DNA from: Calditrichota bacterium
Lineage (GTDB): Bacteria; Zhuqueibacterota; Zhuqueibacteria; Residuimicrobiales; Krinioviventaceae
Assembly (NCBI GenBank): GCA_013152225.1
Contig: JAADGR010000313.1
Location: 1-39,735 of the forward strand
Length of the DNA stretch: 39,735 nt
Direction: 5' to 3'
The notes under the pieces are model-generated. The model did no database searches and was not told the origin of the DNA. It worked only from the letters and a program-made list of their open reading frames with translations. Within the stretch, counting starts at the first letter, position 1, and each line of letters starts with the position of its first letter. The position numbers and the translations under genes are program-made. Positions 32,008-37,350 of the stretch are shown in pieces.

Positions 32008-32125
32008 TCGACAAAATACATAACACCCCCGCTTCTTGCAAAATTCATATTGCTTTTTGGCCAATAATTTCTAAATTGAAACGTTTTGTTGCTCCGATAA
32101 AAATTAAATGAGGAGCTTTGGCGTT

Positions 32126-33424
32126 TTGTCGATTCGTGCGGATATTATTGTAAAAAGTGCTGCTCAGCTTGTCACTTCTTTTTGGGGACAGGCCGAGACA
32201 TCTCAAAAATCAGACGGCGGATTGCTCTTAATTGAAGACGCTGCTCTTGCTGCCCGTGGCGATAAAATTGTTGCCGTCGGAAAAACCTCCGCAGTTATGG
32301 AGGCTGTTGACGCTTCAAAAGCAAAGATCATCGAGGCTGGCGGGCAATCTATTGCCCCAGGTTTTGTTGACCCGCATACTCATCCTGTTTTTGCCGCAAC
32401 CAGGCAAGATGAATTTGAAATGCGGATTCGGGGAAAGACGTACCGGGAAATTGCAAAAGCAGGAGGGGGGATAAAATCGAGCGTCCGAAAGGCGAGAGAG
32501 GCCAGCGAAGATTATTTGCGCCGGCATGCGGCTCTTTACCTCGATCGTTTTCTCGCCTGCGGCACCACGACAATAGAGGCGAAAAGCGGCTATGGTCTGA
32601 GCGTTGCGGATGAATTGAAACTCTTGCGTGTTATCAAGGAACTTGCAGAGGCACATGTCGTTGAAGTGGTGCCCACATTTTTGGGTGCGCACGAAATTCC
32701 TGAAGAATATCACGATCGACGGGAATATTATATTGACTTGGTCATTGAAGAAATGCTCCCTCGCGTTGCAGAAGAAGAATTAGCAGTCTTTTGTGATGTG
32801 TTTTGCGAGGAGCATGTTTTTACTTTCGATGAGTCGAAGCGAATTTTGCAGAAGGCTCATAAAGTAGGATTGATTCCCAAGATACATGCCGATCAGCTTT
32901 CCGAGGGACGAGGAGCTGAACTGGCTGCTAAAGTTGGCGCGATTTCGGCTGATCATTTGGATTATATAAGTGATGAAGGCATTTCAGCTTTAGCGAGTTC
33001 GAGTGTTATTCCCGTCCTGCTGCCGGGCGCTGTTTTCTTTTTGGGTTTAAAAAAATATGCACCTGTGCGCAAGATGATCGACGCTGGACTGCCGGTGGCA
33101 CTTGCTACGGATTTTAATCCGGGTTCGTCACCCTCCCAATCCATGCCAATGATGATGGCGCTCGCCTGCACGCAGATGCGTATGACTCCTGCTGAAGCTT
33201 TAGTGGCGTCGACTGAACATGCTGCTGCCGCGATTGGCCGGGTGAATGATGTCGGCAGACTTGAAGTTGGTATGCAGGCCGATTTTGTTGTTTTGAATGT
33301 ATCGGATTATAAACTTTTGCCCTATCACTTTGGGATGAACTTTGTTGATAAGGTCGTCAAAAAAGGAAATATTGTTTTTAAATCTGGAAACGAGATTCAT
33401 GACAATGCGAATATCAAAATATAA
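32126..33424 (+). CDS. hutI: Imidazolonepropionase (TTG at 32126 or ATG at 32108)
   Basis: Amidohydrolase DPHTH, AGGGI, TIEAKSGYGL, HADQL, SADHL, ALATDFNPGSSP. Confidence 0.95.
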   Translation: MSIRADIIVKSAAQLVTSFWGQAETSQKSDGGLLLIEDAALAARGDKIVAVGKTSAVMEAVDASKAKIIEAGGQSIAPGFVDPHTHPVFAATRQDEFEMRIRGKTYREIAKAGGGIKSSVRKAREASEDYLRRHAALYLDRFLACGTTTIEAKSGYGLSVADELKLLRVIKELAEAHVVEVVPTFLGAHEIPEEYHDRREYYIDLVIEEMLPRVAEEELAVFCDVFCEEHVFTFDESKRILQKAHKVGLIPKIHADQLSEGRGAELAAKVGAISADHLDYISDEGISALASSSVIPVLLPGAVFFLGLKKYAPVRKMIDAGLPVALATDFNPGSSPSQSMPMMMALACTQMRMTPAEALVASTEHAAAAIGRVNDVGRLEVGMQADFVVLNVSDYKLLPYHFGMNFVDKVVKKGNIVFKSGNEIHDNANIKI

Positions 33425-34628
33425 AGTGCTAAAGTACCTTGGACTGTTTGCCTTTATCGCTGTGCTCCTGGCCGGATGCACAAACGACAAACCCCTTCCG
33501 AGTGGCTATGAACTATTACCACGCGAAAACAAAGGTGATGTTCTGGTAAAAACTGTGCGCGCAAATAAAGCATCAACTTATTGGAAAACACCAACAGCCG
33601 GATCTAGAAACACACTATTGCTTGGCTCTTATGACCACGTGAAATCTTTTATCGCCATGCGTTTTTTAACTTATTCCATCCTTGATACACCTTCTGTAAA
33701 TTCCGCTGTTGTGCGATTAACTCAAAATTATCATGTCGGCGATGGAGATTCTATTTCTGTGTCTGTTTATCCGATAAATCCGGATCATTCCTGGGCGGAG
33801 GCAGAAGTTCTGTGGAAAGAGATTAAAGATCAATTTATTGCAGATTCGGTCGTTGCCCGCTTTAAAGTCGCCCCTGTTGATAGTGGAATCATAGAATTTC
33901 CTTTGGATTTGGCTCTGGTCAACCAATGGGTTTCGGATGAATTTAACAACGGCATTGTTATGATTTTTGATAATGCGGATTTTATGGCCGAGTTAAATTC
34001 TTCCAATGCAGCGAGCAATTGGGGAAAGCTGCATGTTACATATACGAAAAAGGACGGTGTGCCTGATACGACCGACCTGGATGTTTTGAGTGATGCAAGC
34101 CTGTTGCAATTTGAATCTCCAACGCCGGAGTACCAACTTGATGAGCAGGTTGACAAATTATTGGTGGGAAATTTGACCGGGTATCGATCCATTATTAATT
34201 TTGATCTTTCGGGAATACCCAAAAATGCAACAATTCATAATGTCCTTTTGAATTTACATATAGATGGTGAAAATAGTAATACGAGAAGTTTTGGGATGCG
34301 TATAAAGGCAACGCCGATCCTCAATGATTCACTGGCATACCCGGAGAATCTGGAATTTGCCACTGGTTCCAAAGCTGCTATCGATGTTGCGCTCGGTTCG
34401 TTGCAGCAGCTTGATTTTTCTTCTGCGGAAGCAATGCTTGCCATGAACACCATTTTTCAGGGGTGGGTTTCCGGGCAGTTGCAGAATTACGGCTTGGGTT
34501 TGCTTCCCGCCGATGCTGGATTGAATGCGGCGAAAATGAGCTTTTATTCCGGCTTTGCCGATTCAAGTCTGGCGCCGACGGCCCGAATCACTTATTCTGT
34601 ACCGCCGTCCGGCAGATTTGATCCCTAA
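33399..34628 (+). CDS. Lipoprotein with two related beta-rich (DNRLRE/DUF4270-like) domains; candidate BamH-like protein (ATG at 33399 or 33405)
   Basis: Signal peptide with lipobox LAG-C, then TNDKPLPSGYELLP. Motif RSIINFDLSGIPKNATIHNVLLNL. Family assignment is inference. Confidence 0.6.
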   Translation: MTMRISKYKVLKYLGLFAFIAVLLAGCTNDKPLPSGYELLPRENKGDVLVKTVRANKASTYWKTPTAGSRNTLLLGSYDHVKSFIAMRFLTYSILDTPSVNSAVVRLTQNYHVGDGDSISVSVYPINPDHSWAEAEVLWKEIKDQFIADSVVARFKVAPVDSGIIEFPLDLALVNQWVSDEFNNGIVMIFDNADFMAELNSSNAASNWGKLHVTYTKKDGVPDTTDLDVLSDASLLQFESPTPEYQLDEQVDKLLVGNLTGYRSIINFDLSGIPKNATIHNVLLNLHIDGENSNTRSFGMRIKATPILNDSLAYPENLEFATGSKAAIDVALGSLQQLDFSSAEAMLAMNTIFQGWVSGQLQNYGLGLLPADAGLNAAKMSFYSGFADSSLAPTARITYSVPPSGRFDP

Positions 34629-34697
34629 AACTTTACTAATACCAATCAAATTCGATTTACGTTGTAATGAAATGCAGGATATATTTCAGGTACAATT

Positions 34698-35900
34698 ATG
34701 ATGAAAAAACGTTTTAACCAGATTATTCCGATTTTAATGCTATTCGTGGCATCCGGCTGTTTTGCGGATTCTTATTATTCTGCGTTAGGCCTTGGTATGC
34801 CGAGGTATTTTGTTTCGCCAAAAGCAGTGGGCATGGGCGGCGCAGGCATCGGCGTTGTCGATCGTTTTACATTAAACGCAATGAACCCTGCTGCGCTTAA
34901 TATTGGCAATATTACAACGGTCGCTGTGGACTTTCAGTATGAAGATGTTGAAAATAAATATGACGGTAATAAAATTACAACCCGAAATGGGAATGCGTCC
35001 GGTTTTAGATTTACCGTGCCATTAAAATCTTATTTGAAAATGATTATATCATTGCGGCCTCTGTCTGCTTCACGATATATTTTTCAAAAAGATTTTAGTA
35101 ATGATTATGTTACTTACAATCGACTTGTACGCGGGAGCGGAGGATTGAACGCTGCGGGTCTCGGATTGCAATATATTATCAAGCCCGGTCTGGCTGTTGG
35201 TGCTGTCATTAACTTTAATTTTGGCAGTTATAATGAAGAGTGGAAAACCAAATTTTCCGAACCCGGGTATCAAAATTCTAACGACAAGATTAACAGCCAT
35301 CTGTGGGGCGGCGGACTCCAATTAGGCGTACTTTTTAGTCCAATTAAAAATCTTGGCATTGGCGTTACTTATCAAAGTTCCAGTAATCTTCGTACCAACA
35401 CGCAGACAGAGTTTGGTACTGAAGGGATGATTGAATCCGAGACAATTCATCTTTCTTATCCCTCGGCACTCGGTACGGGCGTATCTTTTAGTCTTTCCAA
35501 GCTGGTGTTTGCGGCGGACTTTTTTACTCAATTCTGGAATAAATATACAGTGGCTGGAAAAGATATAAGCCATTTTGCTGCTTTTAAGAGATATGGCGGT
35601 GGGATGGAATATAAGAATAGCCGTGATCCGCTCGCTGCTTACGGCAAAAAGATTTCCTATAGGCTGGGTGGGTATTTCGCACAATTGCCTTTCAGGGATG
35701 TTGCCGGGAATGCCGTTAAAGAACAGTTTATAAGCTTTGGCTTAGGTCTCCCGTTTCAGGGAAATCAGGGACGTGTTGATGCGGCAGTGGAAATTGGCAA
35801 GAGGGGATCCTCAGCACAAATGAATTCTCAGGATTTTGTTATCCGCATTAGCGGCAGCGTAACCGGCGGCGAGTTGTGGTTTCAGCGACGGCATCAATGA
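34698..35900 (+). CDS. FadL/OmpP1-family outer-membrane beta-barrel; candidate BamG-like protein
   Basis: Signal peptide; plug-type motifs YSALGLG, GMGGAG, NAMNPAAL; alternating amphipathic strands; C-terminal ELWFQRR. Confidence 0.7.
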   Translation: MMKKRFNQIIPILMLFVASGCFADSYYSALGLGMPRYFVSPKAVGMGGAGIGVVDRFTLNAMNPAALNIGNITTVAVDFQYEDVENKYDGNKITTRNGNASGFRFTVPLKSYLKMIISLRPLSASRYIFQKDFSNDYVTYNRLVRGSGGLNAAGLGLQYIIKPGLAVGAVINFNFGSYNEEWKTKFSEPGYQNSNDKINSHLWGGGLQLGVLFSPIKNLGIGVTYQSSSNLRTNTQTEFGTEGMIESETIHLSYPSALGTGVSFSLSKLVFAADFFTQFWNKYTVAGKDISHFAAFKRYGGGMEYKNSRDPLAAYGKKISYRLGGYFAQLPFRDVAGNAVKEQFISFGLGLPFQGNQGRVDAAVEIGKRGSSAQMNSQDFVIRISGSVTGGELWFQRRHQ

Positions 35901-35910
35901 GAAAAAAATC

Positions 35911-35939
35911 TTGCATTTTTGAGACAATATAGCTAAGAT
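35911..35939 (+). promoter_or_regulatory. Putative sigma70 promoter for the TPR lipoprotein gene
   Basis: TTGCAT-17 nt-TAAGAT with an upstream A tract. Confidence 0.45.
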
Positions 35940-36017
35940 TAAGCCTGAGAAAATAACTTTTATTATGAATTCATTTTTTTGCTTTTAATTTCTGGACAAT
36001 ACTGGAAGGAGAGAAAA

Positions 36018-37295
36018 GTGTTTGCTAAAAAGAATTTGCACAAAACACTCACAGTTGCGCTCGTTCTCGGTTTTGCAATAATGCTTGCCGTCACTCTGAT
36101 GACGGGATGTGCAACAACAGGGGGCGGTCAGAAGCAAACCTTGAGTCCTGAGCGCCAGAAAGCGATCAAGGACTCGTTGAGGAAAATCTGGGATCGTAAA
36201 TTGAATATCGCGTGGAGTACCGGCTATGAACACACAAAGAATAAACTCTATCGCGAAGCAATTCCCTATTTCTGGAAGGTTGTGAAATTAGATACGATTA
36301 AGCGTTTTCCTGATCTCTATACCTTTCTCGGTGATTGTTACATCAAATTAAACAAACCGGACAGTGCTATGATCGTCTATCGGATGGGCACTGAAAAATA
36401 TCCGCAAAAATCTCATTATCATAGAAGCCTTGCGTGGTTACTGGCCGGGAAACAGCAGGCGAGTGAGGCGATCGAGGAGTATAAAAAAGCTATTGCGATT
36501 GACTCGACCAATGTTTCCGATTACAAAGCACTTGGAAATTTACTCGTCTCCGAAAATCGCAATGACGAAGCCATAGAAGTTTATCAGAAAATCCTCAAAA
36601 TGGAACCCAAGAATGCGGAAGCACAAAAAGTTTATGCTCAGCTTTTGGGGACAACCGGGGATCAAGATGCCGTCATTGAAGCGCAGGAGAAAGCGCTGAA
36701 AATGGATCCTGAAAATACGGATCTGATGTATACGCTTGGGGAAACCTATTTTAAACTGTCGGAATTTCAAAAGACTATAGAAAAATTTAATCTTTATCTG
36801 AAACTGAAGCCGAATGATACTTTTGCATTGGAGTATTTGGGGAAGGCACAGCAGAACCTGGAGCAATATCATGAGGCGATTGCGACCTATGAAAAAATTA
36901 TCGCCATCAAGCCGGATAGTAAAAAAATACTTTGTGACATGGCCACAAGTTATAAAGAACTGAACCAGCTTCGAAAAGCCCGAAGTATTGCAAACAAAGC
37001 TTTGAATATTGACCCGAATTATGGATTGGCCTATATTGTTCGTGGCGAGATATACGAAGTGGCCGTAGATAACTGCATGAACAAAAGAGGAGCTAAAAGC
37101 ACTTCTTTTGATGACAAGTTGATTTATAAACTGGCTTATGATCAATATGCCAAGGCGACGAAAGATATTCAATTTGCAGATTTGGCCAGACGTAAAATGA
37201 ACTATCTCCAGCCTGATATTCCTACAAAAGAAGATTATTTTATGCACCAGAGTCAAAAGAAAGCTAAAACAGCTTGTTACCAGTGGATTTACTAA
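36018..37295 (+). CDS. Tetratricopeptide-repeat lipoprotein (GTG at 36018 preferred over 35979)
   Basis: SD AAGGAG; hydrophobic signal ending MTG-C; multiple TPR units such as DYKALGNLLVSENRNDEAIEVYQKILKMEP and ALEYLGKAQQNLEQYHEAIATYEKIIAIKP. Confidence 0.85.
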   Translation: MFAKKNLHKTLTVALVLGFAIMLAVTLMTGCATTGGGQKQTLSPERQKAIKDSLRKIWDRKLNIAWSTGYEHTKNKLYREAIPYFWKVVKLDTIKRFPDLYTFLGDCYIKLNKPDSAMIVYRMGTEKYPQKSHYHRSLAWLLAGKQQASEAIEEYKKAIAIDSTNVSDYKALGNLLVSENRNDEAIEVYQKILKMEPKNAEAQKVYAQLLGTTGDQDAVIEAQEKALKMDPENTDLMYTLGETYFKLSEFQKTIEKFNLYLKLKPNDTFALEYLGKAQQNLEQYHEAIATYEKIIAIKPDSKKILCDMATSYKELNQLRKARSIANKALNIDPNYGLAYIVRGEIYEVAVDNCMNKRGAKSTSFDDKLIYKLAYDQYAKATKDIQFADLARRKMNYLQPDIPTKEDYFMHQSQKKAKTACYQWIY

Positions 37296-37318
37296 AGTAT
37301 GACTGTTTTGTGATTTTA

Positions 37319-37350
37319 GCGGGAGAGGTTTTCCTCTCCCGTTTTCTATT
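37319..37350 (+). terminator. Rho-independent terminator
   Basis: GCGGGAGAGG-TTTT-CCTCTCCCGT followed by TTTCTATT. Confidence 0.8.

Follow-up and report, generated by a model that had tools for sequence, protein, structure and literature searches.

The window analysed here is a stretch of 39,735 nucleotides (nt) from contig JAADGR010000313.1 of a Calditrichota bacterium, and consists of a ribosomal-protein/rpoBC superoperon with all genes on one strand. Towards its end the gene order is rpoA-rplQ-amidohydrolase-[lipoprotein, barrel, TPR]-rpiB-glyA-nrdR. The three bracketed genes, which encode a lipoprotein, an outer-membrane barrel and a tetratricopeptide repeat (TPR) protein, were originally predicted to comprise a bamH-bamG pair of the barrel assembly machinery (BAM) of Bacteroidota together with a possible TPR partner. 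The list of open reading frames (ORFs) confirms three consecutive plus-strand envelope genes, with the motifs first noticed in them, set among core genes. The features are as follows.

33399-34628, plus strand (ORF open from 33342): gene for a BamH-like surface lipoprotein, 409 amino acids (aa) counted from 33399, from the ORF, a DNRLRE match and a structural model.
34698-35900, plus strand: gene for a BamG-like outer-membrane barrel of the FadL fold, 400 aa, from an NCBIfam BamG match and a structural model.
36018-37295, plus strand (ORF open from 35979): gene for an exported TPR protein, 425 aa counted from 36018.
37318-37343, plus strand: terminator-like hairpin with an 11-bp stem (7 G-C pairs) followed by a T-run, between the stop codon of the TPR gene and rpiB.

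The start at 36018 fits a database copy of the TPR protein of 425 aa, and homologues of the lipoprotein start at the Met of 33405. We surveyed 121 genomes of the phylum to which the window belongs, probably KSB1/Zhuqueibacterota. The lipoprotein family occurs in 114 of them (E-value, E, <=1e-10), the barrel in 113 (BamG model, E<=1e-30) and the TPR protein in 98, mostly as single copies, indicating that the three genes are not chance ORFs. None of the statements made here depends on G088, a genome of the sample that is flagged as unpublished.

The barrel is a relative of BamG and not a PorV or FadL/TodX protein. It matches the NCBIfam BamG model (NF053685) over model positions 6-396 of 397 with an E of 1.4e-54 and 185.7 bits. 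When its own genome was searched with this model, the barrel came first among 8 matches by a wide margin, the runners-up scoring 87 and 81 bits. When the barrel sequence was searched against PDB, the three matches at E<=1 were the BamG chains 9n2d_B, 9hjm_F and 9hiv_F; FadL, TodX and PorV chains were not among the matches at that threshold. An AlphaFold (AF2) model of the barrel, built from 56 sequences (predicted local distance difference test, pLDDT, 87.9; predicted template modelling score, pTM, 0.83), shows long extracellular strands and aligns 367-375 residues with the same BamG chains at 20-22% identity and a root-mean-square deviation (rmsd) of 2.6-2.7. The Z scores are 42.6 for 9hiv_F (375 residues at rmsd 2.6), 42.6 for 9n2d_B and 41.8 for 9hjm_F, as against 35.6 for the best FadL (Escherichia coli), 30-32 for TodX and TbuX and 25.1 for PorV. 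NCBIfam, PDB and structural scores agree, as predicted, in placing the barrel with BamG rather than with PorV, FadL or TodX.

Both ends of the barrel point the same way. The original prediction quoted YSALGLG..GMGG..NPAAL near the N-terminus and ELWFQRR at the C-terminus; the signal peptide ends in CFA and is followed by the tail DSYYSALGLG. MAFFT alignment demonstrated that an S-x-[YL]-S-x-x-G-x-G motif directly after the signal peptide, and a C-terminal W-F-x-R-R tail, are common to the barrel and the BamG proteins that pass the NF053685 cut-off. Both tails are absent from four paralogues in the same genome, from its own PorV-like protein and from E. coli FadL. Structural alignments with BamG begin at residue 21-22 of the barrel model, whereas residue 2 of FadL pairs with model residue 33, and the barrel therefore carries an N-terminal extension of about 10 residues. 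An extension of about 10-12 residues is described as the mark that distinguishes BamG from FadL (PMC12611786, PMC12578637).

Two other identities were tried for the barrel and rejected. The PorV model NF033710 gave no match to it at E<=1, in line with the low structural Z score, nor is the barrel among the 29 PorV-model matches of the genome at E<=0.001. The best of the genome's PorV-model matches lies on contig C249 (225 bits), and many of the others are weak. The Pfam family Toluene_X (PF03349), which would point to FadL/TodX, matches residues 154-262 with 15.2 bits (E 0.0075), below its gathering score of 29.7.

The lipoprotein has the fold of BamH and is remotely homologous to DUF4270 proteins. 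Its signal peptide and lipobox LLAG-C (Cys27) are followed by TNDKPLPSGYELLP, and the stretch C-T-x-D-K-P-L-P-S-G-Y-E that starts with the lipid cysteine is the most invariant part of the protein, unchanged in 14 closer relatives. This conservation parallels that of the BamH N-terminus, which is conserved and sits in a groove of BamG (PMC12611786, PMC12578637). After the tail come two beta-sandwich domains of the CBM96/DNRLRE type, and NCBIfam DNRLRE_dom matches the protein in two stretches (9.1e-20). For the domain of BamH that lies next to BamG, the legend to Extended Data Fig. 2 of Liu et al. names 8wab, a chondroitin-binding DNRLRE-domain module, as the nearest relative in structure.

A single-sequence search of PDB with the lipoprotein gave nothing significant (best 0.32, a nebulin SH3 domain), Pfam returned no noteworthy match to it, and a Pfam CBM96 search of the genome matched two other genes and not this one. 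The family is large. A word-index search returned 13 homologues, and a profile search of 1.84 billion representatives returned 5403 matches at E<=0.001 and 137 at E<=1e-30; the best 150 are mostly full-length, at 380-410 aa. Among 20 family members scanned, 15 matched CBM96 at E<=0.01 (8 scored above the cut-off), and one gave a sub-threshold match to DUF4270 (E 0.0057). A profile of 88 family members matches PDB chain 9hjm_G, annotated as a DUF4270 domain-containing protein, at 8.5e-8, in an alignment that includes the signal peptide. Comparison of the lipoprotein profile with five DUF4270 proteins of the phylum by hhalign gave a probability of 96.1% and an E of 3.6e-9 over 354 columns, spanning both.

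The AlphaFold (AF2) model of the lipoprotein (pLDDT 93.7, pTM 0.86) leads to the same relatives. The top three Foldseek matches are the BamH chains 9his_G, 9n2d_C and 9hjm_G (2.0e-12 to 6.9e-12; template modelling score 0.56-0.62), followed by the isolated carbohydrate-binding module 8wab at 3.1e-5. VIA-align superimposes 345-350 residues, covering both domains, with Z scores of 21.8 (9hjm_G), 20.1 (9n2d_C) and 18.1 (9his_G), and these alignments begin one residue past the lipid cysteine. The lipoprotein had been predicted to be a BamH/DUF4270 protein: the BamH fold and the remote homology to DUF4270 are borne out by Foldseek and hhalign, and membership of DUF4270 by Pfam is not.

We examined the arrangement of the two genes across the phylum, counting pairs from 117 strong lipoprotein rows and leaving out partial-domain rows in large proteins. 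Both genes occur in 110 genomes. In 106 of these they share a strand and the lipoprotein gene comes immediately before the barrel gene, its match ending 76-272 nt (median 105) 5' of the barrel match. The remaining four cases are fragments at contig ends. A distant metagenome subfamily of the lipoprotein, 23-28% identical, has the barrel as the next gene in 9/9 loci that extend far enough. The predicted adjacency is thus conserved. The NF053685 cut-off is passed in just 9 of the 121 genomes.

The named relatives of the window are labelled 'candidate division KSB1 bacterium', which NCBI places under the FCB (Fibrobacterota-Chlorobiota-Bacteroidota) group as Candidatus Zhuqueibacterota. The closest public contig (L011, JAACEJ010000661.1), whose proteins are 94% identical and whose genes are in the same order, bears the name 'Actinomycetota bacterium', probably given to it in binning, and the syntenic loci L016 and L017 are labelled 'uncultured Cytophagia bacterium'. 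The labels on all three conflict with the KSB1 labels of the other relatives and look like binning or labelling errors.

Together, the homology and fold of both proteins, their near-universal adjacency in the phylum and their single-copy core status, all observed directly, make it likely that the lipoprotein and barrel genes are the bamH-bamG pair of this lineage, forming the extracellular extension of a BAM of the Bacteroidota/FCB type. Jointly with this, the lipoprotein is likely to be a compact BamH that current DUF4270 and BamH models miss. The genome encodes BamA at 5113-7332 of contig C371 (503 bits) and has several Omp85-family paralogues besides. By analogy with the complexes of Flavobacterium johnsoniae, Bacteroides thetaiotaomicron and Porphyromonas gingivalis, the 14-stranded barrel would stand against the back of this BamA, encoded elsewhere in the genome. 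BamG is described as plugging the lateral opening with its N-terminal tail (PMC12611786, PMC12578637), and the extended tail of the window's barrel may fill the opening in the same manner, hence without lipid transport. The lipoprotein would dock, through its first CBM96-like domain, on a pillar formed by the long extracellular strands, a contact for which the conserved adjacency of the genes and the conserved tail after the cysteine speak. Its lipidated tail would wrap around the barrel and place its lipid at the BamA-barrel interface, and the two-domain lipoprotein could then arch over the BamA seam and help to assemble outer-membrane proteins with large surface parts, such as those of the SusCD type or SprA. 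Liu et al. report that FCB phyla building SusCD and SprA have BamG and BamH; the genome contains one SusD and SprA, besides BamA and BamD, and so fits this correlation. The housekeeping role that had been proposed suits a core, single-copy pair better than fatty-acid uptake does.

Several results weigh against this assignment. The barrel stays below the equivalog cut-off of NF053685 (185.7 versus 250 bits). A maximum-likelihood tree of 24 barrels has an open backbone, so that deep grouping is not settled, and it does not join the window's clade and the cut-off-passing BamG proteins apart from FadL, PorV and the paralogues. The lipoprotein gave no match at E<=1 to Pfam DUF4270 (PF14092), which was found nowhere in this genome (93% complete), and none at E<=1 to NCBIfam BamH_fj (NF053686, cut-off 420 bits), a narrow model to which even a genuine DUF4270 protein of the phylum scores just 25.6 bits. 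In three genomes that are 93-99% complete (G028, G070 and G084), neither a barrel orthologue nor a full lipoprotein match was found, only BamG-model matches at the level of paralogues (66-92 bits). These absences reflect either assembly gaps or a real loss of a supposedly core pair.

The same shortfall in the barrel's score, together with the gene order, would fit a pair that resembles BamG and BamH and acts apart from BamA. According to Silale et al., B. thetaiotaomicron carries a bamG2-bamH2 operon (Bt1785-Bt1786) whose products went undetected in BAM pull-downs and whose genes can be deleted. The window's genes are likewise side by side; gene order taken alone fits such a unit and counts against a principal pair, and the 24-barrel tree does not tell orthologue from paralogue. 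We nevertheless consider a homologous barrel and surface lipoprotein of this kind improbable. BamG2 and BamH2 are dispensable second copies, whereas the window's pair is the only BamG-like and BamH-like pair in its genome, leaving no other candidate for the principal pair, and is near-universal and single-copy in the phylum. The SusD and SprA of the genome also speak against it, given the tie that Liu et al. draw to BamG and BamH. The original claim of an orthologous pair stands as to homology; the choice between an orthologue and a BamG2/BamH2-type paralogue is not settled by the open tree. Far less probable still is that the barrel is a hydrophobic channel of the FadL/TodX type fed by the lipoprotein as a glycan- or ligand-binding surface receptor: the FadL fold, the weak Toluene_X match and the two carbohydrate-binding-module-like domains would suit it, but that match is under its gathering score, the BamG chains exceed FadL by about 7 Z units and extend over the additional N-terminal tail that is the lateral-opening plug in BamG, and the barrel gene is a single-copy core gene in a housekeeping string with no catabolic genes close by.

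Comparison with characterized proteins shows how far the likeness to BamG and BamH extends. The barrel resembles BamG (Fjoh_1412, chain B of 9n2d; Bt4367, chain F of 9hiv; the P. gingivalis protein, chain F of 9hjm) in length, FadL fold, both tails and a BamH-type partner, but shares only the 20-22% identity given above, falls under the cut-off and is encoded in an operon with bamH. The principal bamG and bamH genes of Bacteroides and Flavobacterium are unlinked (Bt4367/Bt4306 in B. thetaiotaomicron and Fjoh_1412/Fjoh_0823 in F. johnsoniae; PMC12578637, PMC12611786), as the original prediction had stated for Bacteroides, where it also placed the barrel gene close to coaX and a TPR gene. The lipoprotein resembles BamH (PF14092, NF053686; chain C of 9n2d, chain G of 9his and chain G of 9hjm) in its post-cysteine tail and in having two domains, the first of them CBM96/DNRLRE-like. 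It is smaller, its mature form counting about 380 residues where the solved BamH chains have about 440-520, shares 10-15% identity with them and presumably lacks the insertions by which BamH binds BamM or BamI-K. Of the six residues that follow its cysteine one is acidic, whereas Silale et al. cite a surface-export signal of Bacteroidota with two or more. FadL of E. coli, TodX, TbuX and the PorV of type IX secretion are members of the barrel's own 14-stranded superfamily, the channels with a Z of 30-36 and PorV with 25, but they have no counterpart of the barrel's N-terminal tail and score below BamG.

The literature found on BamG and BamH comprises Liu et al. 2025, Silale et al. and the preprint 10.1101/2025.01.31.636011, and it shows that the novelty of the locus had been overstated. 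Liu et al. report BamG and BamH as conserved in six of seven other FCB phyla, and Silale et al. describe the bamG2-bamH2 operon. The locus is thus a known system in a new lineage, with both the occurrence of BamG and BamH beyond Bacteroidota and bamG-bamH operons already published. What the locus adds is a function for two genes annotated in public databases as 'hypothetical protein' or 'DNRLRE domain-containing protein'. Surveys that use the DUF4270 or BamH_fj models would undercount BAM complexes of the FCB type, and the compact BamH branch is large, with at least 137 clusters at 50% identity at E<=1e-30.

A second type of pair occurs within the phylum. In five of the nine genomes with a cut-off-passing BamG we examined the neighbouring genes, and in 5/5 the gene immediately 5' of bamG, in the same orientation, encodes a DUF4270 protein (E 1e-24 to 1e-32). 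These pairs sit elsewhere in the genome, away from rplQ or rpiB, and are preceded by a gene for a Kelch beta-propeller lipoprotein, whose cysteine is followed by a poly-acidic stretch. The modules are the following.

Kelch-DUF4270-BamG module loci (L018-L027): G063:C46, G092:C2, G060:C38, G115:C125 and G097:C3.

In genus g10 (three genomes) no BamG/BamH-type pair other than this module was found, and the family of compact lipoproteins is absent. The DUF4270 gene, placed and oriented like the gene of the compact type, can stand in for it, which supports functional equivalence of the two. The Kelch lipoprotein has a putative likeness to the six-bladed propeller BamI of Bacteroides.

The third gene of the locus encodes the TPR protein, which has the lipobox LMTG-C. 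Its orthologues begin with an N-terminal helix, continue with 7-8 TPR units and close with a C-terminal module that contains two invariant cysteines and has CY-x-WIY as its end. The protein is exported, though, with the lipobox cysteine missing in 4 of 14 orthologues, it does not always carry a lipid anchor; its location is probably periplasmic. The invariant cysteine pair suggests a disulphide formed outside the cytoplasm. Pfam and NCBIfam gave only TPR families and no named equivalog over its cut-off. A match to Pfam TPR_Slam (38.2 bits, cut-off 35.2) was discounted, as 30 other TPR families match too. Nor is the protein BamD: it is not among the 48 matches of the genome to TIGR03302 (OM_YfiO) at E<=0.01, and a separate BamD is encoded at 1948-2589 of contig C455 (137 bits, cut-off 81.4). 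A profile search of PDB returned only generic TPR proteins (consensus TPR, OGT and APC subunits) over profile positions of about 100-345, and nothing for the N-terminal region or the C-terminal module. For the latter, the ESM Atlas gave unnamed clusters, mostly from Ignavibacteriota, Bacteroidota and Balneolota, with scores of 0.91-0.93, which serve as a lead only.

Barrel and TPR genes occur together in 95 sampled genomes. In 79 of them the TPR gene comes immediately after the barrel gene, and several of the 16 exceptions are contig breaks. In the distant metagenome loci it follows the barrel in 7/7 (6 distinct), and there the TPR protein is 37-43% identical, above both of its neighbours (23-28% for the lipoprotein). 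The hairpin at 37318-37343 separates the TPR gene from rpiB, and nothing comparable occurs between the three genes. A hairpin with a T-run, different in sequence, occupies the same place in 5/5 closer TPR-bearing loci (L012, L013, L014, L015 and L017). In the distant loci there is no hairpin between the TPR gene and rpiB, and the gaps are 10-24 nt. The hairpin is a probable 3' end of the transcription unit, and the TPR gene is probably co-transcribed with the pair in this family.

We nonetheless lean towards the TPR gene being an inherited neighbour, coding for a periplasmic TPR scaffold that serves some other envelope process and has no tie to the pair. The rpoA-rplQ-...-rpiB-glyA-nrdR string is syntenic throughout, so that adjacency may be a matter of inheritance. 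Eighteen sampled genomes have the barrel and no TPR orthologue, including all those of families f3 (0/8) and f21 (0/5), and the gene is also absent from part of family f8; in six TPR-less loci inspected, rpiB or glyA comes directly after the barrel. Conversely, G084 carries a TPR orthologue at an unrelated site, and no orthologue of the pair was found there. The Kelch-DUF4270-BamG modules, too, have no TPR gene after them. Against mere inheritance stand the constancy with which the gene follows the barrel, distant loci included, a terminator-like hairpin that splits it from rpiB and not from the barrel in the window and the five closer loci, and a conservation in the distant loci that exceeds that of both neighbours.

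These same observations are what would favour a periplasmic partner of the BamG-BamH unit, both in this phylum and in its relatives, a role we regard as doubtful. Such a protein could act as an adaptor, passing lipoproteins or nascent barrels on to a BAM of the FCB type and possibly gripping the C-terminal W-F-x-R-R tail of the barrel. The invariant cysteine pair and the C-terminal CY-x-WIY module would be its hallmarks. Complex prediction for the barrel (residues 23-400) and the TPR protein (residues 17-411), each with its alignment, gave a score of 0.00, which counts neither way. The terms 'TPR', 'tetratricopeptide' and 'KSB1' are absent from the main text of PMC12611786 and PMC12578637, and the TPR gene is the only feature of the locus that could extend the known parts list.

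Upstream of the pair, the 3' end of a HutI-like amidohydrolase gene (32108-33424) overlaps the lipoprotein ORF by 26 nt. The amidohydrolase gene stands between rplQ and the lipoprotein gene in some relatives only, namely at L015, L042 and L044, and partially at L051 and L052.

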